Notes: generated by a model from the sequence alone, not told the origin. A stretch of 64,000 nt of DNA from an uncultured Candidatus Saccharibacteria bacterium (GCA_964593365.1 CAZQGQ010000001.1:244585-308584); one strand, 5' to 3'; shown: positions 9,965 to 51,178, counted from the stretch's first letter. Numbers and translations are program-made.

Positions 9965-10003
9965 ATGAAAGGAAAAGCCGGATATGCTAGTATTTTGCGA
10001 GTC

Positions 10004-10076
10004 GCTTGGGTAGCTCAGTTGGTAGAGCACTTCCCTGAAGAGGAAGGGGTCGCCGGTTCAAGCCCGGCCCCAAGCA
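10004..10076 (+). tRNA. tRNA-Phe (anticodon GAA)
   Basis: Acceptor GCTTGGG/CCCAAGC, D-arm GCTCAGTTGGTAGAGC, anticodon stem CTTCC/GGAAG with loop CTGAAGA, T-arm GCCGGTTCAAGCCCGGC. Confidence 0.9.
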
Positions 10077-10082
10077 CATTGT

Positions 10083-11183
10083 ATGGGCCTCGCTGCGTCA
10101 CATCGTATGTTCAATGAGGCGCTCTCGTTTGCCTCCCGAAACGAACGCAAGCTCGGTGCAGGCTTGTTCGCGTTTGGGTTTTTGACCGATCTCCTTACGT
10201 TCACGCTGCTTCCGCTTTCGGTCATAAACATCTTCTTCGCAAGTTATCTCGTGCTTGCCGCCGTCTGTACCTTCGGCGCGAACGTCATGACGCGCTTTGC
10301 TCTCAACGAAACCTGGTGGCGAAAGACGCTCACCGTTCTCTTTCCGCTTGGCGTCCAGTACGCGCTTGGAGGGCTCTTGTCTGGGTTCGTCGTTTTCTAT
10401 GCAAGCCACTCGGTTGTTGCTGTGTCCTGGCCGTTTCTCGCACTCCTTGCGGTAGTGTATTTTGGAAATGAATATTTCAGGAAGCAGCGCGAACACCTTA
10501 TCTTCCAGACCATTCTCTTCTTCTTCGCCCTCTACGCATATGCGATTTTCGCGCTTCCGTTAATCATTGGTTCTATCGGTCCATGGATCTTTGTCGGAAG
10601 CACGCTAGCCGCGCTGCTTCTCTTCGCTCTGTTCCTCTGGCTCTTGCGCCTGGTGAATCAGGCGCGTGCAAAGGAGAACCTGCGCCCGATAGCGGTGATT
10701 ACGCTTGCGATAACGCTCCTTGTCTCAGGAGCCTATTTCACCGGGGTCATTCCTCCGCTCCCGCTCGCGCTTGCCGAAAGCGGCATCTATCACGCGGTGG
10801 CTCGAACCCCTTCCGGCTATTCGCTTAAGACAGAAGGAGAGCGTTCGTGGTGGGAATTCTGGGCACCCACGCTCCATGTCGTCCCGGGATCTCCTCTCTA
10901 TGCCTATAGCGCTATCGCAGCACCCGCTTCTTTTGGAAGCACGGTCGTGCATCGCTGGGAATACCTGGATGGGCGCGGACGCTGGATCACGGAGAGCAGG
11001 ATCGCGTTCCCGATTACCGGAGGGCGCCAGGGAGGATATCGAGGCTATTCGGCCAAGGAAAACCTCGCAGAGGGCAATTGGAGGGTCTCTATCGAAACGT
11101 CAGGCGGCCAGGTGATCGGACGCATCGGCTTTATGGTAGAAAACACACCGTTCGCACCGGCACTCCAAACGGTTACGCGCTAA
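10083..11183 (+). CDS. hypothetical integral membrane protein (N-terminal 6-7 TM, C-terminal soluble domain)
   Basis: Long ORF with multiple hydrophobic helices. No recognised family motif. The start is uncertain (alternative ATG at 10110). Confidence 0.55.
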   Translation: MGLAASHRMFNEALSFASRNERKLGAGLFAFGFLTDLLTFTLLPLSVINIFFASYLVLAAVCTFGANVMTRFALNETWWRKTLTVLFPLGVQYALGGLLSGFVVFYASHSVVAVSWPFLALLAVVYFGNEYFRKQREHLIFQTILFFFALYAYAIFALPLIIGSIGPWIFVGSTLAALLLFALFLWLLRLVNQARAKENLRPIAVITLAITLLVSGAYFTGVIPPLPLALAESGIYHAVARTPSGYSLKTEGERSWWEFWAPTLHVVPGSPLYAYSAIAAPASFGSTVVHRWEYLDGRGRWITESRIAFPITGGRQGGYRGYSAKENLAEGNWRVSIETSGGQVIGRIGFMVENTPFAPALQTVTR

Positions 11184-11656
11184 GTCGAGCGGACGCGAAG
11201 CTTGGTCTGGCGAGCCTTATCGAGCTTAGGAAGGGTAATGGAGAGTAGGCCGTCTTTTGCTGAAGCGGTTGCGCCGTCTACATCGACTTCCTGGGGAAGC
11301 ATGATGGTTCGGGAGAACGAGCCCCAGAAGAGCTCCTGGCTGAAGTAGTCAGACCCTACTGATTCGCTTCGTTCTTCGCGAGCTCCTTCGATGACGACCA
11401 TGTCGCGGCTGATGGAAACACTCACTTCTTCTGGACGAACGCCTGCTACAAAGGTGCGGATCACAATCTCGTCTGCGGTCTGGTACATGTCGACGGGAAG
11501 CTGGCCTTCGCTTCGTTCTTCTGGAAGGTGTGAAGGGGATGGATTAACGGAGCGGCGCGCTGGAGGGGCATCTACTTCGTCATCAAATACATCGTACTCG
11601 TCATCGATGGGGCGAGAGCCGGAGAGTCGTTCGAAAAGTGAGCGTTTCTTTTGCAT
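11180..11656 (-). CDS. Hsp20/alpha-crystallin family small heat-shock protein
   Basis: ...IVIRTFVAGVRPEEVSVSI...MVVIEGAREE...GSFSRTIMLPQEVD...KDGLLSITLPK, the canonical alpha-crystallin domain. Confidence 0.85.
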   Translation of the reverse strand: MQKKRSLFERLSGSRPIDDEYDVFDDEVDAPPARRSVNPSPSHLPEERSEGQLPVDMYQTADEIVIRTFVAGVRPEEVSVSISRDMVVIEGAREERSESVGSDYFSQELFWGSFSRTIMLPQEVDVDGATASAKDGLLSITLPKLDKARQTKLRVRST

Positions 11657-16622: not shown

Positions 16623-18395
16623 ATGCATTCCATGTGGCGGAGTAATATACCGCGGACCACCAATCCGCTTCGCTTCTTTTTCTTTGCGTCTCGTCCGCAC
16701 TGGAAAATGGCCCTTCTGGCATCTTTGTTCGTCATCACTTCGGCTGCTCTAAGCGCCTTTATCCCGTACCTGTACAAGCTCATTGTCGATGCCGTCATGG
16801 TTCTTGATGAGGGTTCCTATAGGCCAGTGTGGATCGCGGTCTTCACGTATGTGGCCATTTCCCTTACAGCAGACCTCTGCATGCGCGGAAGCGGGTTTGC
16901 CGGCATGCACTGGGCAAACGGCATAAGAGCCACGGTCCGGGAGGCCCTCAACTCCTACATCACGCTTCATAGCTACCGATACTTCTCTAATAACTTTGCA
17001 GGCTCGCTTGCAAGCAAAATCAAGCAGGCTGCTGAAAGCCTTTCCGACTTATCTGAGATGTATCTCTGGTCCTTCCTTGGGTTTTTTGTCTCCGTGGTCA
17101 CGGGCTTCACCATCGTGTTCCTTACGAGCCCAGTCGTTGGGCTTATCTTGTTTGGGCTCTTTGCGATCATTACGCCCTTGAACATTGTCCTTGCCCGAGG
17201 CCGCGTACCGCTTTCAGTCGCTAACCAGGCAGCAGAAACAAAATTGACTGGAGCAAACATCGACCTGCTTACCAACATCAATGCGGTGCATGAGTATGCT
17301 CGCCGCAAGTTCGAGCTCAAGCATCTGCGAGAGCTCATCCTTATCCGGCGCGAGCGGTCTCTTACCAACTGGCGATACGGCGAGTGGATCCTGCTCTTGA
17401 ATAACGTACTGCAGGCCTTTTTCATCGCAGCCATGATGCTCGTTGCTGTCGACCTCGCGATCAAGGGAGAGATCACCCCGGGCGACATCATCCTCTTCCT
17501 CGCCATGGTGTTCCTGCTTCGAGGACAGCTGACATTCATCGGTTCTCAGTTCAATCACCTTGCAGAGAAGTGGGGAACGATCAAGGAAAGCCTTACGGAT
17601 ATCACCAAAGATCACGAAGTGGCAGATACGCAGGAGGCCTCCGAATTAATGGTTTCCAGAGGCGGCGTCTCGTTTGAAAATGTCGTCTTTGAGTATGAAG
17701 GCATCCCTGTCTTTAGCGATCTTACCTTCGATATCCCTGCCGGGCAGCGAGTGGGAATCATTGGCAGAAGCGGTGCGGGGAAATCCACTCTCGTGAAGCT
17801 CATTTTGCGCCACTATGATCTCAATGGGGGACGCATTGTCATTGATGGCACCGATATAAGCTCAGTCACCAAAGAAAGCCTTCGAGAAGCAATCGCCATA
17901 GTTCCTCAGGAAGCTGCTCTGTTCCATCGCAGTATCCATGACAACATCGCGTATGGGCTTACAAACGCAACGCGCGAAGAAGTCATCCGTGCCGCTACGC
18001 AGGCACAGGCGCACGAATTCATCGAGCGCCTCCCCGAGGGATATGAGTCGATGGTAGGTGAGCGCGGCATAAAGCTTTCAGGCGGTCAGCGCCAGCGCAT
18101 TGCGATTGCGCGTGCGCTCATTAAAGACGCTCCGATCCTTCTCCTTGATGAGGCGACGAGCGCGCTTGATAGTGAGAGCGAAGGTGCCGTGCAAAAGGCA
18201 CTCCTTCGCCTTATGGAAGGCCGCACCGTGCTTGCAATCGCGCATCGCCTCTCGACGCTTCGCGCCATGGATCGGCTGATCATCTTTGATGCCGGGAAGA
18301 TAGTCGAAGACGGAACGCACGAAGAGCTCCTTAAGAAGAAGGGACTGTACGCGGATCTCTGGACGCACCAGGCGGGAGGATTCTTGGAAGACTAG
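16623..18395 (+). CDS. ABC exporter, fused permease and ATP-binding subunit (MsbA-like)
   Basis: Six N-terminal TM helices. Walker A GRSGAGKST, signature LSGGQRQRIAIARAL, Walker B ILLLDEATSALD. Confidence 0.85.
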   Translation: MHSMWRSNIPRTTNPLRFFFFASRPHWKMALLASLFVITSAALSAFIPYLYKLIVDAVMVLDEGSYRPVWIAVFTYVAISLTADLCMRGSGFAGMHWANGIRATVREALNSYITLHSYRYFSNNFAGSLASKIKQAAESLSDLSEMYLWSFLGFFVSVVTGFTIVFLTSPVVGLILFGLFAIITPLNIVLARGRVPLSVANQAAETKLTGANIDLLTNINAVHEYARRKFELKHLRELILIRRERSLTNWRYGEWILLLNNVLQAFFIAAMMLVAVDLAIKGEITPGDIILFLAMVFLLRGQLTFIGSQFNHLAEKWGTIKESLTDITKDHEVADTQEASELMVSRGGVSFENVVFEYEGIPVFSDLTFDIPAGQRVGIIGRSGAGKSTLVKLILRHYDLNGGRIVIDGTDISSVTKESLREAIAIVPQEAALFHRSIHDNIAYGLTNATREEVIRAATQAQAHEFIERLPEGYESMVGERGIKLSGGQRQRIAIARALIKDAPILLLDEATSALDSESEGAVQKALLRLMEGRTVLAIAHRLSTLRAMDRLIIFDAGKIVEDGTHEELLKKKGLYADLWTHQAGGFLED

Positions 18396-19393
18396 GCTTT
18401 CTTGCTTCGCTCTTGAAGCGAGGACCAATACGAGGCTCCCACAAACGCAAGACCGACAAGGCCAGTAATGACTTCTGGCACGTGCGTGAACACGCTTGCA
18501 AGCATCGCCGCAGCAAGACCAAGAATCGCCCAGTGTGCTCCGTGTTCGAGATAGGCAAGAGCGTCGAGGGTCTTTTGGCGGACCATATAGATAGTAAGGG
18601 AGCGAACGAAGTACGCGCCAACGCCAAGCCCAACGACAATCACCGGAAGCTGGTTGGTGATAGCGAAGGCTCCGATAACGCCGTCGAGCGAGAAGGCAGC
18701 GTCGAGGATTTCTAGATAGAGAAAGAGCGCGAGACTTCCGCTTGCCATGGATGCGGCGTTCGCTTCAACTGAGAATGCGTTTGCAATTGCCTGGATACCA
18801 ATGAAAAGCAGGATACCAATGGTGCCTGCGAACAATACGGTCGCTGCAGACTCGGGAAGGACGAGCGCGATAACCGCAAGCACGGCAAGCGCAATGCCTA
18901 TCTCAAGGGCTTCGATACGTCCCCAGCGAGCCACACGGCGCTCAATGAAATGGATCCAGTGCACGTCCTTACCTTCGTCAAAGAAGTATTTCAACGAAAC
19001 CATGAGCAAGAAGATTCCTCCGAAGGAAGAGATAGCCACACGAGCGCCTTCAAGGAGGTGCCCGTACGCCTCCGGGTCATTCAGAACCAATGCGCCAACC
19101 GCAAATGGCGACATCGACACGCTTATCGCAACGATAAGGATGGGAAGCAAGAAGCGCGTTCCAAAGACGGCGATAAGGATACCCCAGGTAAGGAAGTAGT
19201 TCTGCCACTTCGTGTTCATCCGCTTCAGCACTTTTGCGTTAACGACCGCGTTATCAAAGGAAAGAGTAACTTCAAGAATAGTGAGGAGTATGGCAATGAA
19301 CAGAGCGGTCCAACCACCCCACACGAATATGGCGATAAGCGCTACAACCCAAATGATGATTGATACTGAGAACGACCGAATAATTGCATCCAT
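18392..19393 (-). CDS. TerC/DUF475-like integral membrane protein
   Basis: Polytopic, with the LSFDNAV motif characteristic of TerC/DUF475-type membrane proteins. Confidence 0.55.
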   Translation of the reverse strand: MDAIIRSFSVSIIIWVVALIAIFVWGGWTALFIAILLTILEVTLSFDNAVVNAKVLKRMNTKWQNYFLTWGILIAVFGTRFLLPILIVAISVSMSPFAVGALVLNDPEAYGHLLEGARVAISSFGGIFLLMVSLKYFFDEGKDVHWIHFIERRVARWGRIEALEIGIALAVLAVIALVLPESAATVLFAGTIGILLFIGIQAIANAFSVEANAASMASGSLALFLYLEILDAAFSLDGVIGAFAITNQLPVIVVGLGVGAYFVRSLTIYMVRQKTLDALAYLEHGAHWAILGLAAAMLASVFTHVPEVITGLVGLAFVGASYWSSLQERSKKA

Positions 19394-35449: not shown

Positions 35450-35451
35450 GT

Positions 35452-36213
35452 ATGCAGAAGACCTATCCCTTTCGAACGCGCTTTGGAGCTGACATCGTCA
35501 CGGAGTTTCTTCCTCCTGTCCGCCATTCAAACAAAGTCGTGATCCTGACAGCGGGATGTCCTGGATATCCAGGCGGCAAAGAAACGCTCATGCATCTTCT
35601 GGCAAGTAGAGGCTACTGGTCCTTTGTTCCGCGCTACCGAGGAACGTGGGAGAGCGGGGGAACATTCTTGGAATACGCGCCAAACGAAGACGTGATCGCC
35701 GTCATGGACGGGATGCAGGAAGAATTCTACGACCTGTGGAGCGGGTCCGAGTATCGCGTGCAAAACCCAGAAATCTATTTGATCGGAGGATCCTTCGGAG
35801 GAGCAGCGGCGCTTCTTGCCTCTCGCGATCCTCGAGTAAAGAAAGCGGCAACCATCTCCGCTGTTGTTGATTGGAAGAAGCAGGAGCAGACCCTAGAGCC
35901 GCTCCATCTTATGAGCGAGTACGTTCCGCAGGCCTTTGGCCAAGGATATCGTTCGGATCCGTCCGTCTGGATGAAGCTTGCTGCAGGCGGTTTTTATAAC
36001 CCAGAAGAAGAGAAGGAATCGATCGATGGGAAGAAGCTCCTCATGATCCACGCCAAGAACGACATGGTGGTGCACTTTGCGCCTGCACTTGAGTTTGCAA
36101 AGAGCGTGGGCGCGCAGTTTGTCGCGCTCTCGTATGACGGGCATATGGGAGTGGGAGCTGCAGGAGAACCGAAGCTCTTCCGGCGCATAGAGAAGTTTTT
36201 CAGGACAAAATAG
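35452..36213 (+). CDS. alpha/beta hydrolase (dienelactone hydrolase/S9-like)
   Basis: Nucleophile elbow GGSFGG, plus the late-catalytic Asp/His region HAKNDMVVHF. Confidence 0.7.
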   Translation: MQKTYPFRTRFGADIVTEFLPPVRHSNKVVILTAGCPGYPGGKETLMHLLASRGYWSFVPRYRGTWESGGTFLEYAPNEDVIAVMDGMQEEFYDLWSGSEYRVQNPEIYLIGGSFGGAAALLASRDPRVKKAATISAVVDWKKQEQTLEPLHLMSEYVPQAFGQGYRSDPSVWMKLAAGGFYNPEEEKESIDGKKLLMIHAKNDMVVHFAPALEFAKSVGAQFVALSYDGHMGVGAAGEPKLFRRIEKFFRTK

Positions 36214-36254
36214 GCTTCGAATTCTAGCCCGCTACACTACGATATACTTCTTCT

Positions 36255-36602
36255 ATGGATCATAAACAACTTAGCATAGGCTTCGTAGCGCTCGTAATAG
36301 GGCTAGGCGTGGGATACATGCTTAATACAACCCCCGTGCAGGTTGTTGAGGACGACACTGCCATGCATGGTGAAATGGAAAGCATGACAGGAGGTCTAAA
36401 AGGAAAAGTAAGCGATGATTTTGATAAGGCCTTTCTTGCAGAAATGATTGTGCACCACGAGGGCGCTATAGATATGGCGGAGGCAGCACTTCAAAACGCT
36501 AAGCACGAAGAGATAAAGACTATGGCAAATGCAATCATCTCTGCACAGACATCTGAAATCGTTCAGATGAAGGAGTGGCTGAGCAACTGGTACGGACAAT
36601 AA
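36255..36602 (+). CDS. DUF305 family protein (copper-stress associated four-helix bundle)
   Basis: DFDKAFLAEMIVHHEGAIDMA and a second histidine-containing helix, plus an N-terminal TM. Confidence 0.7.
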   Translation: MDHKQLSIGFVALVIGLGVGYMLNTTPVQVVEDDTAMHGEMESMTGGLKGKVSDDFDKAFLAEMIVHHEGAIDMAEAALQNAKHEEIKTMANAIISAQTSEIVQMKEWLSNWYGQ

Positions 36603-37228
36603 TGAGCCTCACTACTCTTAGGCGCCCTCTCGAATCATTCGGATTTGTCGAACGAGAGCGGCGTAACGGCAAGCAACTACATTTCAAATGCGAGAGAGAT
36701 TTCCTGTATTTCTGTCTCAATTTCTACTTTCCTGAGAAGTTCAATGCTTCGGCATGCAATCCAGAAGACATTGATCAGAGAAAACTCTTCGGGACACCAG
36801 TTCCTAAATATCTCGCTTGGACACAAATTCAATATTTCGATATGCCCGCTTTTTTCAAAAAGCACGGTCTCACGTTGTATATCAATAACCAGAAAATATC
36901 CTCCTATTTCAGCTTGATGTGGGCTATTTTGTTTTCAAGATTATCTCTAGATGAAGCGATGATCTCTCTTGAAGCCAATATAAATAACAATATCGCTTGT
37001 GCCATTGATATCCCTATAGAAAAGAAGAAATTTGTCCTCCTCGATCATGTAATGTTCGTCTATGGCTACGACAGTGAAAACGCCTACGTGTTTGATACCC
37101 TTACAGTTCCTGGACTTGCCTACGAAAGAATAAGAGACGACATACACTACTTTAAGTTGCCACGAGCAGTAATCGAGAAGAACTGGTGTCTATTTGGTCG
37201 GGTGTGGAGGGTGGAAAAGACTGCATAG
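36575..37228 (+). CDS. hypothetical protein (AT-rich island gene 1)
   Basis: 217-aa ORF of markedly lower GC. Repeat R1 follows its stop codon directly. The start may be the ATG at about 36602. Confidence 0.45.
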   Translation: MAEQLVRTIMSLTTLRRPLESFGFVERERRNGKQLHFKCERDFLYFCLNFYFPEKFNASACNPEDIDQRKLFGTPVPKYLAWTQIQYFDMPAFFKKHGLTLYINNQKISSYFSLMWAILFSRLSLDEAMISLEANINNNIACAIDIPIEKKKFVLLDHVMFVYGYDSENAYVFDTLTVPGLAYERIRDDIHYFKLPRAVIEKNWCLFGRVWRVEKTA

Positions 37229-37256
37229 GGTTCCAACATCGTCCCAGACAGCCAGC
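37229..37256 (+). repeat. island repeat R1: GGTTCCAACATCGTCCCAGACAGCCAGC
   Basis: Identical to R3 over all 28 nt. It begins at the first base after the TAG stop. Confidence 0.8.
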
Positions 37257-37282
37257 TAATAAGTTTATGCTACAGTCTTGTC

Positions 37283-37828
37283 ATGATTAAGATCACGTAC
37301 TTCGTACACGGTACGACCGTAGATAACCAAAATGACATTTCTTCCGGCTGGTCGGATGCTCCACTTTCCGAACTTGGTATTCAGCAGTCCAAAGATCTCA
37401 GGGAGCAAACGAAAGATATGCATTTCGATGTGGTCTTTTGTTCAGATTTACAACGCGCACAGATTTCGGCAGAGCTTGCCTGGAAAGGTCTGTACGAAAT
37501 CATTCCTGATGCTCGTCTTCGAGAATGTAATTATGGGGATTTAAATGGAGGACCATCGGAGATCGTCGAGCCGCTCCAGGAAAAGGAAATGCATTACAAA
37601 CCCTTTCCTGGGGGCGAAAGCTATGAAGACGTTAAGAATCGCGTAGCTGACTTTCTCGAGTTTCTTAAAGCAAACTATGACGGTAAGCATGTCGCTCTTG
37701 TGGGCCATAAGGCCCCTCAGCTTTCGCTCAATGTCTTACTTAAAGGCATGACCTGGGATGAGGCGCTCGCAAGCGACTGGCGCAAGACTAAGTCATGGAA
37801 GCCAGGTTGGGAATATCAGCTAGATTAA
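37283..37828 (+). CDS. histidine phosphatase (phosphoglycerate mutase) superfamily protein
   Basis: YFVHGTTVDN...GWSDAPLSELGIQQ...FDVVFCSDLQRAQISA follows the branch-1 His-phosphatase pattern. The usual RHG reads VHG here. Confidence 0.65.
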   Translation: MIKITYFVHGTTVDNQNDISSGWSDAPLSELGIQQSKDLREQTKDMHFDVVFCSDLQRAQISAELAWKGLYEIIPDARLRECNYGDLNGGPSEIVEPLQEKEMHYKPFPGGESYEDVKNRVADFLEFLKANYDGKHVALVGHKAPQLSLNVLLKGMTWDEALASDWRKTKSWKPGWEYQLD

Positions 37829-37835
37829 GCAAAAA

Positions 37836-37863
37836 AGTTCCAGCATCGTCCCAGACAGCCAGC
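37836..37863 (+). repeat. island repeat R2: AGTTCCAGCATCGTCCCAGACAGCCAGC
   Basis: 26 of 28 nt identical to R1. It begins 8 nt after the TAA stop and is preceded by an A-run. Confidence 0.8.
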
Positions 37864-37883
37864 AATAAGTTAGAATTGAACCT

Positions 37884-38432
37884 ATGGATTCAAGGATTCT
37901 GAATGTAATAGATCAAGAAGGGAATATTGTTCGTGAAGCTACACGGGAGGAAATACATAAGAACGGTCTTCTGCACGCTGAAGTGCATGTCTTGTTTTAC
38001 ACACCAGATAGGAAAGTCATCTTTCAACATCGTGCAAAAGACAAGGACACTTATCCAGATCTTTTGGATGCGACTGTTGGAGGTCATGTCGAACCTGGCG
38101 ACACTTATGAAGAAACAGCGTTGAAAGAAGCTGGAGAAGAGGTGGGTATTTCTGTAGATCCCAAAAGCCTTATCCCTCTTCGCACAGTTATAACAAAATC
38201 ATATGATGAGGTAACGGGAACCATCAATCATCCGAGGCGCAGTATTTATGCATATCGATACGAGGGTGCGTTAGAGGACTTACGTATCGAAGAAGGGAAA
38301 GCGATTGGGTTTGAGGCCTGGTCTATCGATAAGCTTTTTGCTTTAACAATAGACGAGCAGAAGAAGTTCATTCCACTACTTATTGGAGATATTTACATCG
38401 ATATCTATAAACAAATTCAAGATTTAATATGA
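37884..38432 (+). CDS. NUDIX hydrolase
   Basis: Nudix box GGHVEPGDTYEETALKEAGEEVGI (G-x5-D-x7-KEAxEExGI). Confidence 0.7.
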   Translation: MDSRILNVIDQEGNIVREATREEIHKNGLLHAEVHVLFYTPDRKVIFQHRAKDKDTYPDLLDATVGGHVEPGDTYEETALKEAGEEVGISVDPKSLIPLRTVITKSYDEVTGTINHPRRSIYAYRYEGALEDLRIEEGKAIGFEAWSIDKLFALTIDEQKKFIPLLIGDIYIDIYKQIQDLI

Positions 38433-39178
38433 TGGAAAATGTCTCAATTTCCAATAATAAGGGTCAACAGCTCTCAGCGAATATGTATCCATCAAAGACA
38501 GCAACCCATAAACTTGCCATTCTCTGTCCAGGGTACTTAGACACCAAAGATTACGTGCATCTGGTGCGTCTTGCTGAGCAGCTTACAGGGCGTGGGTATA
38601 CAGTCGCTTCTTTTGATCCAACTGGTACCTGGGGAAGTGAAGGTTCTAATGAGGAGTATTTAACGTCTCAATACCTAGAAGACATTAAGAGTGTTCTCGA
38701 ATACATGCTTAGCCAGGCTCCTTACAGCAGTATTCTTTTAGGTGGCCATAGTCGAGGCGGCCAAGTCGCAATATTATATGCCGCACATGACCCACGTGTG
38801 ACGCAAATTCTAGCGATTATGCCTTCACATGGGCCAGTGGAGGGATCGCGCAGAGAAGAGTGGGAGAAAGAAGGGTTTAAAGACTCGGATAGAGACATTC
38901 CTGGAAGTACTGATCGTAAGTACTTCCATATTCCCTTCAAGCACGTATTAGACCGAGATCAATTTGATGCTCTTGGAGATATAAAGAAAATAAAAGCATC
39001 AATAATCCTTATTGCCGGCGAGCTCGACGACTTAGTCACTCCGGAGGAAGTACGACAGCTCTATGATGCGGCTAATCAGCCCAAGAAATATATGATACTA
39101 GAGGGGATTGGTCACGATTATCGTTTGAATTCAAAGGAAGTGGAAAGAGTGAATATAGCGATTCTTAAGGAGATTTAG
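38429..39178 (+). CDS. alpha/beta hydrolase
   Basis: Nucleophile elbow GGHSRGG, plus the C-terminal GHDYRL catalytic His region. It overlaps the NUDIX gene by 4 nt (ATGA). Confidence 0.7.
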   Translation: MMENVSISNNKGQQLSANMYPSKTATHKLAILCPGYLDTKDYVHLVRLAEQLTGRGYTVASFDPTGTWGSEGSNEEYLTSQYLEDIKSVLEYMLSQAPYSSILLGGHSRGGQVAILYAAHDPRVTQILAIMPSHGPVEGSRREEWEKEGFKDSDRDIPGSTDRKYFHIPFKHVLDRDQFDALGDIKKIKASIILIAGELDDLVTPEEVRQLYDAANQPKKYMILEGIGHDYRLNSKEVERVNIAILKEI

Positions 39179-39185
39179 CAAAAAA

Positions 39186-39213
39186 GGTTCCAACATCGTC
39201 CCAGACAGCCAGC
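39186..39213 (+). repeat. island repeat R3: GGTTCCAACATCGTCCCAGACAGCCAGC
   Basis: Identical to R1. It begins 8 nt after the TAG stop and is preceded by an A-run. Confidence 0.8.
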
Positions 39214-39250
39214 AAAACGAGAATAGATTGGAAATTGGTATACTGAGTCG

Positions 39251-39583
39251 ATGATGGAAGGTTTAAGACAAAAGATCGCACGTACCATGCCGGAAGGGCC
39301 CGACACAAAAGAAGTGCTAGCGCGTGTTGAGGAGATATCTGTTACGCTCCTTTATCCTATAAAAAAAGAAGAGAGAGAAGATGCGCGTGCGAAGCTTCTG
39401 GAAGCTCTTACGACAATGTCGCCTGAGGAACGCGCAAAGACGGCACGAGCGGTAAGCGCCATTGTGGAAACATTAGAGAAGAGCCCGTATAGGAATGTGG
39501 GGTTTAACGGATCTTTGATTCGAAGGCAGTTGGCAGACATAGGGCCAGTAGCAGAAGCTCTAAACGCTTCGAATCAGGAATAA
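39251..39583 (+). CDS. hypothetical 110-aa protein (AT-rich island gene 5)
   Basis: ORF with predicted helices. No recognisable motif. Confidence 0.4.
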   Translation: MMEGLRQKIARTMPEGPDTKEVLARVEEISVTLLYPIKKEEREDARAKLLEALTTMSPEERAKTARAVSAIVETLEKSPYRNVGFNGSLIRRQLADIGPVAEALNASNQE

Positions 39584-39594
39584 AAACCTACCCT

Positions 39595-39622
39595 GGTTCC
39601 AACATCGTCCCAAACAGCCAGA
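39595..39622 (+). repeat. island repeat R4: GGTTCCAACATCGTCCCAAACAGCCAGA
   Basis: 26 of 28 nt identical to R1. It begins 12 nt after the TAA stop. A terminator hairpin follows it. Confidence 0.75.
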
Positions 39623-39631
39623 CGTATAAAA

Positions 39632-39662
39632 TAAAAACACCCGCCGGAAGCGGGTGTTTTTA
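39632..39662. terminator. bidirectional rho-independent terminator (ACACCCGC-CGGAA-GCGGGTGT plus T-run)
   Basis: GC-rich hairpin between the island end and the convergent rpsA gene. A/T runs lie on both sides. Confidence 0.7.
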
Positions 39663-39672
39663 TGTCCAACTC

Positions 39673-44897: not shown

Positions 44898-45383
44898 ATG
44901 GAAGCCTGGCTCGATTTTGCGATTCTCGGCCTAGCAGCGCTTCTTCTTTTTATCGTCTGTGCGTTCCTTGAGAAAAGATCTTCTGATGCCCTTCGCCTTC
45001 TGCTGATAAGCATCCCGACTGGCATAGTGCTTGGGTTGGTCTCTGACGTTGCGTTATGGGGAGCGTACACGTATCCGCTTGGATACGGATTGTTTTATTT
45101 GGTCCTTAATGCCGCCGTCGTATACGGATTGTTTGTAGCTACGGTATTACTTTTACAACGAGTTCGGTTACTGCGTTTTTGCATCTGGGTTATGGCACTG
45201 GTGGTTGTGTATGAAATCACCAACTATTACTTTCTCGTATGGACTTATGAAGTCACACCGTTTCTCGGTTGGCTCTCCTTTGTCATCCTAGGTTATTTCG
45301 CGACCGCAGTGTTTGTTGCCGTCGTAGCTCACGTATTTTGCGGATATAAGTTTCAATTTATCGATGATTTAATCAGGAAATAG
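44898..45383 (+). CDS. hypothetical 5-TM membrane protein
   Basis: Hydrophobic 161-aa ORF immediately after gyrA. Confidence 0.5.
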   Translation: MEAWLDFAILGLAALLLFIVCAFLEKRSSDALRLLLISIPTGIVLGLVSDVALWGAYTYPLGYGLFYLVLNAAVVYGLFVATVLLLQRVRLLRFCIWVMALVVVYEITNYYFLVWTYEVTPFLGWLSFVILGYFATAVFVAVVAHVFCGYKFQFIDDLIRK

Positions 45384-45424
45384 CTTATTTCTTAAGGTTC
45401 CAATCTCTTCAGGCAGCTAACGAA

Positions 45425-48645: not shown

Positions 48646-49357
48646 GACTATGATCTCTCCCCGACACCTCTTCGTCTCTCTTCTTCTTGGCGTTTCTTTG
48701 CTGCTTCCGTTTGGGGCAGCAGCGCAGTATCCAAACTGCAACCCGATGACTTCAACCCCCTGCAACATGCCGGAGGGTCAGGCAGACTTCTGCGCGACCG
48801 CTAGCACGGTGAGCGATCAGAAGATGGCCTGCGAAAACATTGGCGGGGGACAGGTACTAACCTCCGCAGCGTCTACCGCAGGCGGCATGAGCTGTGCTGC
48901 GAACCGAACCCCCTGCCAAGTCGATGGCACGAACTTCTGCGCGAACGGCGGGGCATCGGCATGTAATGCGGCGAACGGCGAAGTCATCACGAGCGCTAAT
49001 CCAAACCCCGATCCGGCTCCTACTCCAGGCACCCCTACCGATGATGCGACCACAACATCTACTTCAACTGATGCAGGATCGACAGCGGTCGGAGGCGGAA
49101 CGCTCCTCAATCCACTTGGCGTCGATTCGCTTGAAGACCTTCTGACTGCCGTGCTTGGAGCGGTAGTGCAGATCGGTTCTATCTTCCTCGTCTTGGCACT
49201 CGTCTGGGTCGGCTTCCTCTTCGTCTTTGCGCAAGGGAACGAGGAGAAGATCAAGACCGCACGTCAGGCCCTCTTCTGGACCATCATCGGCGGCTTGGTA
49301 CTTCTTGGCGCGCAGGCGATCTCGATGGTAATCCAGGCAACCGCTGAAGCGCTATGA
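48629..49357 (+). CDS. pilin-like two-TM family member P1: signal peptide, N-terminal Cys-rich ectodomain, Pro/Thr linker, C-terminal two-helix core
   Basis: Signal peptide LLLGVSLLLPFGAAAQ. There are 11 Cys in C-x-x-x-C-like spacing and a PNPDPAPTPGTPTDDATTTST linker. The core LVLALVWVGFLFVFAQGNEEKIKTARQALFWTIIGGLVLLGAQAI is shared with P2-P7. Confidence 0.65.
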   Translation: MPYFAKTMISPRHLFVSLLLGVSLLLPFGAAAQYPNCNPMTSTPCNMPEGQADFCATASTVSDQKMACENIGGGQVLTSAASTAGGMSCAANRTPCQVDGTNFCANGGASACNAANGEVITSANPNPDPAPTPGTPTDDATTTSTSTDAGSTAVGGGTLLNPLGVDSLEDLLTAVLGAVVQIGSIFLVLALVWVGFLFVFAQGNEEKIKTARQALFWTIIGGLVLLGAQAISMVIQATAEAL

Positions 49358-49602
49358 CCTTCAAGCAATTCGTCGAAGGGACCATTGTGCAGGCAGTGGA
49401 TTCATCTATCATTCCGCTCATGTATGCGCTTGCGTTCTTGTTCTTCATTTATGGCGTAGCCCAGACGATGTTCTCGTATAACGAAGAGAAGCGTCAGGAA
49501 GGGAAGAAGTTCGCGCTCTGGGGCATCATCGGGCTCGTGGTCCTCTTTAGCGTCTGGGGAGTCGTGAAGCTCTTTTTGACCGTGCTTACGAACGGTTTAT
49601 AA
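49354..49602 (+). CDS. pilin-like two-TM family member P2 (core only)
   Basis: IIPLMYALAFLFFIYGV...NEEKRQEGKKFALWGIIGLVVLFSVWGVV. It overlaps P1 by 4 nt (ATGA). Confidence 0.65.
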   Translation: MTFKQFVEGTIVQAVDSSIIPLMYALAFLFFIYGVAQTMFSYNEEKRQEGKKFALWGIIGLVVLFSVWGVVKLFLTVLTNGL

Positions 49603-49641
49603 CCGGTTTGCGAAGCATCTACTCACTGATACCTTATACCC

Positions 49642-50163
49642 ATGGACATCTTCCAATTCATGCTGCACCTGACGGTCTTCATCGACCGCTTCCTGATTCC
49701 ATTTATATTCGCAATAGCGTTCCTCGTGTTTGTCTGGGGCGTCTACATGTATTTCATCCAGGGCGGGGGAAACGACGAGAAGCGCAAAGAGGGCCGCACC
49801 TTCATCCTTTACGGCATCGGAGGGTTCGTCATCATGATCGCCATCTGGGGCATCGTGAACGTGCTTATCAGCTCGCTTGGCTTTGATACGAAAGGACGTC
49901 CGCCTCTTCCGTCCTTCGGAACGCCGACAGGGACAGTAAACAGCGCCACTACCACTAATAACAATGTGTTTAATACCGGTAACGGAGTCGCAGATTGTCG
50001 CGTAGCTCCTAATCAGTGCTATTCGGGCTATACCTGTACGGCATCGTCCGGATATACGCTTTGCGAGCCGGTCGTCACCGGAGGAGGTAATCAGACCACC
50101 TGTACACCTGAATGTACTAACGGGACGACCTGTGTTGCTGGCACTTGTCAGTCGAGCATCTAG
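49642..50163 (+). CDS. pilin-like two-TM family member P3: core plus Asn/Thr linker plus C-terminal Cys-rich domain
   Basis: LIPFIFAIAFLVFVWGV...GGGNDEKRKEGRTFILYGIGGFVIMIAIWGIVN, then ...CRVAPNQCYSGYTCTASSGYTLCEPV...CTPECTNGTTCVAGTCQSSI. Confidence 0.65.
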   Translation: MDIFQFMLHLTVFIDRFLIPFIFAIAFLVFVWGVYMYFIQGGGNDEKRKEGRTFILYGIGGFVIMIAIWGIVNVLISSLGFDTKGRPPLPSFGTPTGTVNSATTTNNNVFNTGNGVADCRVAPNQCYSGYTCTASSGYTLCEPVVTGGGNQTTCTPECTNGTTCVAGTCQSSI

Positions 50164-50254
50164 TTAGTTTGTTTTCCACACTGCACCCTGCAGTCTATTG
50201 ACGCCCTAAACTGGCGGTCTATGCTGTAGGCATACCTTACCCATATAATCTCTC

Positions 50255-50605
50255 ATGAAAAAACTCGCTATTCTCGTCGCTACGTGGACCCTCCCGATTG
50301 TTGCGCTTGCGCAGGTCCGGGACGTCTTTCAGGCTGCTACGCTCATCACCCAGATCATTAACGGCGTTCTCGTTCCGCTCGTGTTCGCGATCGCCTTTAT
50401 CGTCTTCATCTGGGGCGTTTTCACGTACTTCATCCTTTCGGGAGGAAATGCTGAGAAGCGCGAAGAGGGACAGAAACTCATGCTCTACGGCATCGTTGGT
50501 TTCTTCGTGATGGTCGCTGTGTGGGGACTCGTTAACATCCTCCTCGGTACCTTCCAGTTGAACAACAACATCCCGAGCCTTCCTGGCGCTCCAGGACCTC
50601 GATAA
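50255..50605 (+). CDS. pilin-like two-TM family member P4 (signal peptide plus core)
   Basis: Signal peptide MKKLAILVATWTLPIVALAQV, then LVPLVFAIAFIVFIWGV...GGNAEKREEGQKLMLYGIVGFFVMVAVWGLVN. A TATAAT lies 10 nt upstream of the ATG. Confidence 0.65.
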   Translation: MKKLAILVATWTLPIVALAQVRDVFQAATLITQIINGVLVPLVFAIAFIVFIWGVFTYFILSGGNAEKREEGQKLMLYGIVGFFVMVAVWGLVNILLGTFQLNNNIPSLPGAPGPR

Positions 50606-50620
50606 CTCACAGGAGTTTAG

Positions 50621-50648
50621 AAAAGACCCGGGCAACCGGGTCTTTTTC
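50621..50648 (+). terminator. rho-independent terminator after P4 (GACCCGG-GCAA-CCGGGTC plus TTTTT)
   Basis: A 7-bp GC stem with a GNRA-like loop and a 5-T run separates P4 from P5. Confidence 0.7.
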
Positions 50649-50664
50649 GTTATAGAATGCAGAT

Positions 50665-50901
50665 ATGACTTTCGGCGGACTCTTCTCCATGCTCGTGTAC
50701 CAAGGACTTATCCCGCTCGCCTTCACGATCCTCTTCATCACCTTCCTGTGGGGCCTCTTCACCTTTGTCGTTGCAGGAGGACCAGATGAGGAAGCGAAGG
50801 AGAAAGGGAAGGCGCTTCTCTTCTACGCCCTCCTTGGGTTTCTCGCTCTCATCGTCTTTTGGGGAGTCGCTAACATAGTGCGCGACCTGTTCTCCGCCTA
50901 A
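50665..50901 (+). CDS. pilin-like two-TM family member P5 (core only)
   Basis: LIPLAFTILFITFLWGL...GGPDEEAKEKGKALLFYALLGFLALIVFWGVAN. Confidence 0.6.
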   Translation: MTFGGLFSMLVYQGLIPLAFTILFITFLWGLFTFVVAGGPDEEAKEKGKALLFYALLGFLALIVFWGVANIVRDLFSA

Positions 50902-50923
50902 CGCTTCGGTATATACTTCACGT

Positions 50924-51178
50924 ATGGAACCCTTCAATCAATTCATCGTAACGGTCCAAGAGCAGATTCTTTCACCGCTTCTGACCCTGATCGCACTTGC
51001 AGCCTTCGTCGTCTTTGTCTGGGGCGTCGTTGACTTCATCCGTGGCGCAGATAACGAGGAGCGTCGCAAATCAGGGCAGCAACACATGATCTGGGGCATT
51101 ATCGGCCTCGTGATCATCTTTGGCGCAAACGCCATCATCACCATGCTGCAGGCGACGCTGACAAACACATTCAACTAA
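50924..51178 (+). CDS. pilin-like two-TM family member P6 (core only)
   Basis: LSPLLTLIALAAFVVFVWGV...GADNEERRKSGQQHMIWGIIGLVIIFGANAI. Confidence 0.6.
   Translation: MEPFNQFIVTVQEQILSPLLTLIALAAFVVFVWGVVDFIRGADNEERRKSGQQHMIWGIIGLVIIFGANAIITMLQATLTNTFN

Follow-up and report, generated by a model that had tools for sequence, protein, structure and literature searches.

A 28-bp repeat that follows genes of a low-GC island in a Candidatus Saccharibacteria genome most likely is the junction site left by a family of small integrating, plasmid-like elements that use a large serine recombinase (LSR) and target tRNA genes, and in many ultra-small (Patescibacteria) genomes these sites delimit integron-like arrays of single, self-promoted accessory genes. 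We place the probability of this reading at about 0.7.

The repeat and the island between pth and rpsA

Given an initial annotation of a near-identical 28-bp element after four genes of an AT-rich island, we first tested whether the repeat is real, using the whole 64-kb stretch of DNA (the window). The 28-mer GGTTCCAACATCGTCCCAGACAGCCAGC occurs on the + strand at 37229, 37836, 39186 and 39595, with 0, 2, 0 and 2 mismatches. No copy was found in 100 dinucleotide shuffles, and a profile search detected no further copies in the 64 kb. The annotated observation thus was confirmed, as were the genes and families, with the unknown first protein more likely being 208 aa than the annotated 217 aa, and with a clear A-run preceding copies 2 and 3 only, rather than three copies. 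Family assignments were His_Phos_1 (7e-32), NUDIX (1e-13) and, for the alpha/beta hydrolase, Hydrolase_4 (2e-16). The gaps from stop codon to repeat are 0, 7, 7 and 11 nt. GC content, which had been proposed as a check, is 0.39-0.48 in the island against 0.51-0.59 in the flanks. Comparison with the syntenic genome L015 (L numbers denote the loci compared), whose flanking proteins are 60-88% identical, showed that pth and rpsA are adjacent there, with the pth stop codon followed directly by the bidirectional terminator and rpsA, indicating that the block is an insertion. The features are as follows.

35450-39630 (+): inserted block relative to L015, in which the orthologous terminator is retained.
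35452-36602 (+): two left-most inserted genes with no repeat after them, an alpha/beta hydrolase (35452-36213, GC about 0.55) and DUF305 (36255-36602); it is uncertain whether they belong to unit 1, and no repeat or tRNA-like site was found at the left edge.
36602-37228 (+): unit 1 gene, unknown 208-aa protein starting at ATG 36602, translationally coupled to DUF305 by a TAATG overlap, with its stop codon TAG abutting repeat copy 1; homologues are widespread in Paceibacteria, and one (L207) is followed by a degenerate repeat in a different locus.
37226-37256 (+): repeat copy 1, P-type arm 37226-37247 and tRNA-Gln-type acceptor block ACAGCCAGC 37248-37256.
37268-37828 (+): unit 2, extended -10 (TGcTACAGT, -10 at 37271-37276), 6 nt, ATG 37283; histidine phosphatase gene 37283-37828.
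37833-37863 (+): repeat copy 2 (2 mismatches), P-type arm 37833-37854 and block 37855-37863.
37871-39178 (+): unit 3, -10 TAGAAT 37871-37876, 7 nt, ATG 37884; a two-gene unit with NUDIX 37884-38432 and alpha/beta hydrolase 38429-39178, which overlap by 4 nt (ATGA at 38429-38432).
39183-39213 (+): repeat copy 3 (consensus), P-type arm 39183-39204 and block 39205-39213; two sister Logan contigs break inside it.
39236-39583 (+): unit 4, extended -10 TGgTATACT (-10 at 39239-39244), 6 nt, ATG 39251; unknown 110-aa protein 39251-39583.
39592-39622 (+): repeat copy 4, the most degenerate (CCCAAAC; block ACAGCCAGA), abutting the ancestral terminator.
39631-39663: bidirectional intrinsic terminator shared by the array and rpsA, ancestral to the locus (-20.8 and -21.2 kcal/mol, z -5.3 and -6.5); only copy 4 is followed by a strong hairpin terminator.

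The -10, 5-8 nt, ATG pattern is seen in most forward cassettes. The initial annotation had suggested folding the repeat and looking for a recombinase gene nearby. The repeat has no secondary structure on either strand (MFE about 0, z about 0; z-scores from -1.8 to +1.0 for 60-90-nt contexts on both strands) and no dyad symmetry, and no recombinase-like ORF is present in the window.

Repeat arrays across Patescibacteria

To test whether the repeat is confined to this locus, as also had been proposed beforehand, we searched related genomes with a profile and found about 307 copies in 143 Patescibacteria loci. In the 82 multi-copy loci there are 164 adjacent pairs, none inverted, with a median spacing of 546 bp. 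The apparent extreme conservation is partly a product of exact-pattern searches, and variants exist, for example GTTCTAACATCGTCCCACAC in L164. Of 164 units, 135 (82%) hold a single gene, and the 188 cargo proteins fall into 174 families, including NUDIX, HAD and GNAT, with NUDIX being the most frequent cargo family (8 of 147). Stop codons pile up at the left edge of the repeat and never enter it. Array content varies at orthologous loci: L002 and L014 are 92.6% identical up to the repeat and then differ by at least four units, and other breakpoints fall at repeat columns 7 and 32. No identical cassette was seen in two different arrays. The cassettes carry their own promoters, with the spacing from the repeat to the -10 box varying from 5 to 25 nt. 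Forward cassettes generally lack hairpin terminators of their own, whereas reversed ones have them.

Of the 32 tRNAs in the loci, 28 are tRNA-Gln, and all 28 are co-oriented with the repeats and lie upstream of every repeat. The sequence after the tRNA end (CAGC|AA, promoter, ATG) mirrors the sequence after the repeat. The repeat is composite, with an invariant left arm of about 22 nt (AAAGGTTCCAACATCGTCCCAG) joined to the 9 nt ACAGCCA-G-C of a tRNA-Gln acceptor 3´ end. The repeat aligns to the tRNA-Gln 3´ end at 21-22 of about 26 positions with one 5-nt insertion, while other tRNAs reach at most 19 and shuffles give 10.7 +/- 2.5. The right 16 nt of the repeat have tRNA 3´-end architecture, although the repeat is not a plain partial tRNA.

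Serine recombinase elements and their junctions

Small elements encoding an LSR (Pfam Resolvase + Recombinase + Zn_ribbon_recom; homologous to SPbeta integrase, with a PDB hit) and a rolling-circle Rep lie between tRNA and array in L116, L121, L142 and L149. L042 and L116 are identical up to ...CCCAGC| and then diverge into an array versus an element. We also examined eight further LSR contexts (L162-L169), selected solely on how long their contigs were. In all eight the LSR 3´ end overlaps a tRNA 3´ end, and in seven there are left-arm sites on the far side, 23 sites in all, every one in the same orientation. At tRNA-Lys (L165) and tRNA-Ser (L168), the far-end site is the same left arm fused to that tRNA's own 3´ end, and at L164 one repeat carries the resident tRNA-Gln block; we consider this anatomy decisive. 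The identity blocks shared by the attL and attR hybrid sites are AGGGCGGAC at L165, CACACTCTCCGC at L168 and ACTCTGCCAGCA at L164. In all three pairs, the GGTTCnA motif is 5 nt further from the identity block in the far-end site than in the tRNA, as it also is in the repeat versus tRNA-Gln (19 versus 14 nt to the discriminator). This matches the 5-bp shift of the ZD motif between attP and attB reported for serine integrases (PMC3783163), though that GGTTCnA is actually the motif bound by the ZD is inferred.

Collectively, these data are best explained if each repeat is an attR-like junction of a family of elements that encode an LSR, a rolling-circle Rep and an HTH protein and integrate into the 3´ end of tRNA genes. 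In this view, the left arm is the element-derived P-type half-site, and the next 9 nt, the acceptor-stem 3´ strand plus discriminator of a tRNA-Gln, are the short identity block in which strand exchange occurs. Repeated recombination at the same site would push earlier units outward, leaving a polar array in which every unit ends in one junction, the units being compact and autonomous, with an extended -10 promoter right after the previous junction, a leaderless ORF, and a stop codon abutting the next junction. The island of the window would be a four-junction array of this kind. Our analysis directly documents the anatomy of the repeat, its identity with the far-end sites of LSR elements, the tRNA-Gln-headed polarity and the variability of the arrays. 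We infer, in contrast, that the LSR acts on these sites, recombination at a central dinucleotide not having been assayed, and that units are deposited or picked up by the elements, for example by alternative choice among several attR-like sites as proposed for SCC composites, or are mobilised in trans.

Other observations fit this model less well. The window has no LSR, no tRNA-Gln and no recognisable attL-like scar at the left edge of the array, and 41 of 62 informative loci likewise lack a tRNA or LSR head; how such arrays were seeded and whether the units still move was not established. Canonical serine integrases do not recombine attR with attR, or attL with attP, such that serial accretion and single-gene units need non-canonical behaviour or additional steps not shown here. 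The cassettes also lack the conserved P´ arm, which in the elements is the 3´ end of the LSR gene. Under our reading the attP of free element circles would carry the AAAGGTTCCAACATCG arm, but no free circular attP (P-O-P´) and no excised cassette was recovered, a scan of viral contigs giving only false positives.

Alternative readings and related systems

The interpretation in the initial annotation, that the arrangement is reminiscent of integron cassettes but also fits a 3´-UTR RNA element or a recombinase or regulator binding site, was partly supported: the cassette-like organisation is real and general and the repeat is best explained as a recombinase site, but the integron analogy fails in its defining features and the 3´-UTR reading is contradicted. 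An outcome that the annotation had named as counting against it, that the copies are remnants of a mobile element terminal repeat, is partly borne out, since the repeat is the junction (att) sequence of a family of mobile elements that use a serine recombinase, though that family is neither an IS nor a MITE; there are no inverted pairs among the 164 adjacent pairs and the element is not a palindrome, whereas inverted terminal copies, target-site duplications or palindromic units would be expected for IS or MITE terminal repeats or REP elements.

Among the alternatives, the least improbable, though still unlikely, is that the repeats anchor RecA-dependent homologous recombination, for example after natural transformation, with units flanked by 28-33 bp of identity being swapped without a site-specific enzyme and the link to LSR elements being only historical. 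Uniform orientation and the loss of homology between related genomes at repeat edges also are expected under this model, most arrays, including that of the window, have no recombinase or tRNA nearby, and ComEC-type competence genes occur in these genomes (a Competence domain in L207). However, it does not explain the tRNA-specific block that changes with the targeted tRNA next to an invariant arm, the 5-bp motif shift or the strict tRNA-Gln-headed polarity. About 30 bp is near the lower limit for efficient RecA-mediated exchange, and each lineage's repeat should drift by concerted evolution, yet one arm is kept across hosts whose DnaX is only about 51% identical and whose GC ranges from 0.32 to 0.63.

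A strand-specific RNA or regulatory element belonging to each gene, such as a 3´-UTR stability, processing or termination signal or an operator for a transcription factor in an operon of similarly regulated genes, is less likely still. In its favor, every copy in the window follows a stop codon on the coding strand, the sequence is C/A-rich and unstructured, and the terminators are distributed as described above. Yet 51 of 135 single-gene units (38%) have the gene on the opposite strand to the repeat, whole arrays (L014, L019) are antisense to it, copies occur between convergent genes with no promoter nearby (L021; window copy 4), and the spacing to the -10 box is variable. A search against Rfam gave nothing at the repeat, the only hits near copy 4 being weak and driven by the terminator, and no conserved structure was found; this reading also cannot explain the fusions of the same arm to tRNA-Lys and tRNA-Ser ends at element boundaries. 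A strict integron, in which a tyrosine recombinase encoded elsewhere recombines folded single-stranded attC-like sites, is already disfavored and the least likely of all, despite the same-orientation, single-gene cassettes with diverse small-enzyme cargo and the integrase-less arrays reminiscent of CALINs. Neither strand has a hairpin or imperfect palindrome, with or without flanks, only about 31 nt are conserved against 57-141 bp for attC, and the arrays lie at many chromosomal sites among diverse housekeeping genes, without an attI, intI or Pc platform. No tyrosine recombinase was found in the window or, in a jackhmmer search with Xer-type probes, among about 1000 ORFs, though the probes were approximate and this absence is not rigorous. 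The expectation of same-orientation arrays of mostly single-gene, mostly promoterless cassettes gave a divided result, as orientation and gene content agree but the cassettes have their own -10 box and leaderless start and 38% are reversed, leaving this criterion without a verdict.

The system shares features with several known ones. As for the large serine integrases LI, phiC31, Bxb1 and SPbeta, a recombinase with Resolvase, Recombinase and zinc-ribbon domains lies at one end of the element (in the related loci, not in the window), hybrid sites at the two ends share a short identity block, and the motif is shifted by 5 bp. Here, however, the hosts are Patescibacteria, the elements are 3.5-7 kb plasmid-like units with a rolling-circle Rep rather than phages, the target is the T-arm and acceptor end of tRNA genes (Gln, Lys, Ser, Trp), and attR-like sites occur in long direct arrays at single-gene spacing, which canonical unidirectional integrases are not expected to generate. 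As in staphylococcal and enterococcal cassette chromosomes (SCCmec, ECC) mobilised by CcrAB, a serine recombinase inserts highly variable cargo at the 3´ end of a conserved gene, with flanking direct-repeat att sites, and complex islands carry multiple attR sites delimiting modules, some without a recombinase of their own (PMC6222049). Several direct-orientation sites downstream of one conserved target gene are found in the tRNA-Gln-headed arrays (17 of 62 informative loci), while the window has the multiple sites but not the target gene at the head. SCC and ECC modules are 20-80 kb and target rlmH, in contrast to units of about 0.5 kb, mostly single genes, and a tRNA; relatedness to Ccr, and any shared ability to use several att pairings, was not examined beyond domain architecture and SPbeta homology.

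As for tycheposon-seeded islands of Prochlorococcus, and tRNA-anchored island accretion in general, where a full tRNA sits at the island head, serial integrations push older elements outward and partial-tRNA att remnants are scattered through accessory cargo in a streamlined genome (bioRxiv 10.1101/2020.12.28.424599), the tRNA-Gln genes head arrays. Tycheposons, however, mostly use tyrosine recombinases (910 of 937) and have plain partial-tRNA repeats, whereas here the repeat is a composite, the units are regular, tightly packed single genes, and most arrays are no longer next to a tRNA, so that membership in this class could be argued either way. With integrons and CALINs, the arrays share polarity, mostly single-gene cassettes with very diverse small-enzyme cargo and the frequent absence of an adjacent recombinase, but the associated recombinase is of the serine type. 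The islands resemble SCC or tycheposon islands at integron scale.

A more speculative possibility, which we regard as tentative but which would be of considerable interest if true, is that Patescibacteria possess an integron-like gene-capture system that runs on an LSR instead of a tyrosine integrase. Single self-promoted genes carrying only a P-type half-site plus a 9-nt tRNA-Gln block would be inserted at, and excised from, tRNA-Gln, and possibly also inserted at other array sites, by a recombinase acting in trans and supplied by small integrative plasmids. Because only one specific half-site per partner would be needed, substrates and products would be equivalent, and the reaction could then repeat indefinitely and build arrays.

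A repeat associated with single-gene units in Patescibacteria

Given the unusual organization of the low-GC genes in the window, we first examined the repeat that follows them. Four copies of GGTTCCAACATCGTCCCAGACAGCCAGC are present on the + strand, none is expected by chance, and no further copies were found in the 64 kb. The main features of the region are as follows.

35450-39630: insertion of about 4.2 kb in the window's lineage
35452-36213: alpha/beta hydrolase gene (Peptidase_S9 / Hydrolase_4 type, 253 aa), outside the repeat-delimited part of the insertion
36602: ATG of the gene for an unknown protein, probably 208 aa, coupled to the upstream DUF305 gene by a TAATG overlap
37229 (+): repeat copy 1, 0 mismatches
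37271: -10 box of the His_Phos_1 gene
37836 (+): repeat copy 2, 2 mismatches
37871: -10 box of the NUDIX gene
38429-39178: alpha/beta hydrolase gene (Peptidase_S9 / Hydrolase_4 type, 249 aa), inside the repeat-delimited part
39186 (+): repeat copy 3, 0 mismatches
39239: -10 box of the gene for an unknown protein of 110 aa
39595 (+): repeat copy 4, 2 mismatches
39631-39663: strong bidirectional terminator

The five same-strand ORFs (the 208 aa protein, His_Phos_1, NUDIX, the alpha/beta hydrolase within the repeats and the 110 aa protein) are as described in the initial annotation, with gaps of 0-11 nt from stop codon to repeat. The GC content, which that annotation had suggested computing, is 0.39-0.48 in the island compared with 0.51-0.59 in the flanks, and only copy 4 is followed by a strong terminator. 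The reported arrangement of AT-rich genes each followed by a conserved repeat thus was confirmed. The two alpha/beta hydrolases in the inserted block were not compared with each other. In a syntenic genome (L015), whose flanking proteins are 60-88% identical, pth is followed directly by the orthologous terminator and rpsA, indicating that 35450-39630 is an insertion and that copy 4 abuts the ancestral terminator. The window derives from a 646-kb metagenomic contig. We looked for strain-level variation of the array, but all sister assemblies are at least 99.98% identical and carry the same array; two of them end inside copy 3, and these ends are assembly breaks.

To test whether further copies exist in related genomes, and whether they flank gene ends or fall at random positions, as had been proposed in advance, we searched for conserved cores of the repeat. 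A 23-nt core occurs in 34 places in about 22 Patescibacteria/Paceibacterota MAGs, and a 20-nt core occurs in at least 119 metagenomic stretches. A profile search found 318 copies in 154 sequences, of which about 11 single-copy loci are a GC-rich coding match considered unrelated and were excluded, leaving about 307 copies in 143 loci. In all 82 multi-copy loci, every copy has the same orientation (164 adjacent pairs), with gene-sized spacing (minimum 212, median 546 and maximum 4769 bp). Of the 164 repeat-to-repeat units, 135 hold one gene, 84 forward and 51 reversed, and coding density in the units is 0.86. The 188 cargo proteins fall into 174 families. Recognizable cargo is small enzymes (NUDIX x8, HAD, GNAT, M14 peptidase, alpha/beta hydrolase and others), though most cargo has no Pfam match. 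The NUDIX cassettes are mostly only 27-40% identical, and thus our search for cassettes shared between arrays gave no direct evidence of recent cassette transfer. Homologs of the window's 208 aa protein occur both with a degenerate repeat in a different locus (L207) and without any repeat (L206, L208).

Only about 31-36 nt of the repeat are conserved: xAxAAAGGTTCCAACATCGTCCCAGAC(A/T)GCCAGCAA. Stop codons of upstream forward genes pile up on the left edge and never pass the first G of GGTT, although the core has no stop codon in any frame. In many loci (e.g. L005, L020, L026 and L029), as well as in the window, forward units start right after the repeat with a -10 box, often TG-extended, followed 5-8 nt later by ATG with no Shine-Dalgarno sequence, implying that the genes are self-promoted and that leaderless mRNAs are the norm for these accessory genes. 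In contrast, reversed units have a conserved promoter-like segment against the left edge of the repeat, often show an AAGGA-like ribosome-binding site, and have a hairpin terminator after the previous repeat.

The arrays lie between unrelated housekeeping genes such as nrdAB, trpS, murA, mreB, alaS, dnaX and pth-rpsA, and no conserved adjacent recombinase was found. Related genomes differ in unit content at the same locus. For example, L002 and L014 are 92.6% identical up to the repeat, after which L014 has at least four additional units and L002 has a decayed remnant; other breakpoints fall at repeat columns 7 and 32. The host genomes are deeply divergent, with a median DnaX identity of 51% and locus GC of 0.32-0.63.

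We next considered what kind of element the repeat might be. Folding of the repeat with its flanks, the test suggested beforehand for an attC-like hairpin, revealed no structure as DNA on either strand, and the attC-like and terminator readings thus were dropped. Rfam searches at gathering and E-value thresholds found nothing at the repeat. A dif/Xer-type or other two-arm tyrosine recombinase core was rejected by eye since the two halves share no inverted symmetry, and no tyrosine recombinase, the other integron hallmark that was to be sought, was found among about 1000 ORFs, though the probe sequences were approximate. A strand-specific 3´-UTR element was not supported because 38% of single-gene units are antisense to the repeat and copies occur between convergent genes. 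A fixed -35 or operator role was rejected given that the spacing to the -10 box varies from 5 to 25 nt and some copies have no promoter nearby, and a coding or readthrough role was rejected because the frame relative to the upstream stop codon differs between copies. The interpretation offered in the initial annotation was only partly supported: the cassette idea is right in spirit, but the integron and RNA readings are not supported.

tRNA genes and large serine recombinases associated with the arrays

We noted that 28 of the 32 tRNA genes in the fetched loci are tRNA-Gln (19 UUG, 9 CUG). All 28 are co-oriented with the repeats and have every repeat downstream and none upstream, usually one gene-length before the first repeat. 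The sequence after the tRNA end (...CCCAGC|AA, then -10, then ATG) is the same as the sequence after a repeat (...GCCAGC|AA, then -10, then ATG). The repeat (top) aligns to the tRNA-Gln 3´ end (bottom) as follows.

AGGTTCcAA[CATCG]TCCcAGaCagCCAGCAA
AGGTTCgAA[-----]TCCtAGtCtcCCAGCAA

This alignment gives 21-22 matches of about 26 positions, compared with at most 19 for the window's other tRNAs and 10.7 +/- 2.5 for shuffles. The right 16 nt of the repeat have exact tRNA 3´-end architecture, with T-stem strand CCCAG, acceptor strand ACAGCCA, discriminator G and then CAA, and the U1-A72/G73 features seen in every tRNA-Gln found here are present.

In four array loci (L116, L121, L142 and L149), a 3.5-7-kb element lies between the array head and the array. 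The element encodes a large serine recombinase (LSR; Resolvase + Recombinase + Zn_ribbon_recom, homologous to SPbeta integrase), a RepSA/ORF2-G2P-type Rep and small HTH proteins. In L121, the 220-nt region beyond the recombinase 3´ end (flipped coordinates 2885-3104) has no tRNA but contains many GAGAC/GTCTC repeats of unknown function in both orientations. The L116 locus and the array locus L042 are 100% identical through a tRNA-Gln and a duplicated tRNA-Gln 3´ fragment and diverge exactly after ...TCTCCCAGC|, into a cassette array in L042 and into the element in L116. At positions 1-125 of both loci, the tRNA-Gln is atypical (T-loop GGATCGTACCC) and is followed 16 nt later by a 23-nt 3´ fragment of a canonical tRNA-Gln, suggesting that an earlier integration replaced or displaced the resident tRNA.

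The recombinase family has more than 2600 homologs, largely in Parcubacteria. We examined eight further recombinase contexts (L162-L169), chosen only for the length of the contig. In six, the 3´ end of the recombinase gene overlaps or abuts a tRNA 3´ end (Trp, Gln x2, Lys, Ser) or a tRNA-Gln-like fragment on the opposite strand. In seven of the eight, left-arm sites lie on the far side; there are 23 such sites, all on the same strand, including arrays of 4 and 12. The tRNA-Trp-integrated element in L162 (4744-7423) carries SRA/HNH and Mrr-type nuclease genes, and its far end is undefined since no left-arm site was found within 10 kb; T4SS-pilin genes lie beyond the tRNA. On two of the contigs, L169 (native 10001-11509 and 17535-19004) and L166 (10001-11512 and 17012-18301), two serine-recombinase genes lie 5-6 kb apart, showing that LSR genes cluster at one locus. 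The second gene in L169 is next to a tRNA-Ser. Both L169 genes have an adjacent Rep gene, suggesting two elements in tandem, whereas only the first does in L166.

Anatomy of the element ends

The far ends of the elements allowed us to examine the origin of the two parts of the repeat. Where the element sits at tRNA-Lys (L165), its far end reads AAAGTTCCAACATCGTCC-CAT-AGGGCGGAC-CA, and where it sits at tRNA-Ser (L168), the far end reads AAAGGTTCCAACTTCATCC-CACACTCTCCGC-CA. Both are the left arm of the repeat (AAAGGTTCCAACATCG) fused to the 3´ end of the tRNA that was targeted. In L164, one array copy carries the resident tRNA-Gln block ACTCTGCCAGCA. The left arm is therefore element-derived (P-type), and the right part is the tRNA acceptor block within which exchange occurs.

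In all three attL/attR pairs, the GGTTCnA motif is 5 nt further from the block in the far-end site than in the tRNA. Rutherford et al. (PMC3783163) showed that the ZD-binding motif of serine-integrase sites lies at positions 16-24 in attP and is "shifted by 5 bp toward the center" in attB. If the crossover is placed around repeat columns 29-30, a placement we infer, AGGTTCCAA falls at about 16-24. The variable repeat positions 28-30 then lie at the center, where serine integrases make few specific contacts.

We also searched viral contigs for a free attP. All 36 hits (IMG/VR loci L170-L205), together with 11 of the metagenome hits (L054, L059, L072, L082, L088, L091, L107, L111, L124, L126 and L134), correspond to the GC-rich, phage-associated coding segment, which shares 24-25 nt (AAGGTTCCAACATCGTCCCAGACA) with the left arm and was scored as a false positive. 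The reverse complement reads VWDDVGTF in that gene and reads the same in the long-form repeat next to reversed cassettes; our data do not distinguish between coincidence and common origin.

A proposed model for junction-delimited arrays

These observations led us to a model in which the repeat is an attR-like junction, consisting of a P-type arm plus a tRNA-Gln block, and the arrays are accretions of junction-delimited units at a site used repeatedly by these elements. While the composition of the sites rests on the sequences, how the units came to be deposited is inferred, and we can envision two routes, neither of which is demonstrated. In one, which fits the data, elements would excise through alternative attR-like sites and pick up or leave behind passenger units, as proposed for SCC and ECC composites with multiple attR sites (PMC6222049); this also resembles tycheposon islands, in which newcomers push older elements outward. 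In the other, the units would be mobilized in trans through their single specific half-site. There are several weak points: canonical integrases do not recombine attR with other sites, the cassettes lack the conserved P´ arm, no circular intermediates were found, the viral scan for a free attP returned only false positives, and 41 of 62 informative loci, including the window, have neither a tRNA nor a recombinase head and no attL-like scar. At the left boundary of the window's insertion, neither an attL-like scar nor a B-type site was detected.

Serine-integrase att sites, tRNA-anchored accretion and SCC-like multiple attR sites are all known. In contrast, their combination into regular, integron-scale, self-promoted single-gene units delimited by composite P-arm/tRNA-block sites, widespread in Patescibacteria, appears undescribed; in the library searched, no paper contained the sequence or described such arrays in CPR, whether in connection with integrons, cassettes or serine recombinases. 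Patescibacteria (CPR) have tiny genomes, and their routes of gene gain are poorly understood. The findings point to a widespread architecture for accessory-gene turnover, consisting of polar arrays of single, self-expressed genes, delimited by serine-integrase junction sites and often anchored at tRNA-Gln. If the units are mobile, this would be a functional analog of integrons built on a different recombinase class, and would supply a catalog of natural tRNA-targeting serine integrases with defined, half-site-dominated att sites, of interest for genome engineering. More immediately, the about 31-nt motif is a simple marker for locating flexible-genome regions in CPR MAGs and explains contig breaks at these sites.

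Two other regions of the window, both outside the island, also stood out. A second low-GC stretch (about 0.44) with strongly negative AT skew, at 45000-45400, covers a gene for a 161 aa membrane protein. At 49354-51178, three paralogous small membrane proteins (82-173 aa) have a conserved hydrophobic N-terminal segment and a shared 28-nt DNA repeat (family D3), and are reminiscent of pilin- or TrbC-like proteins.
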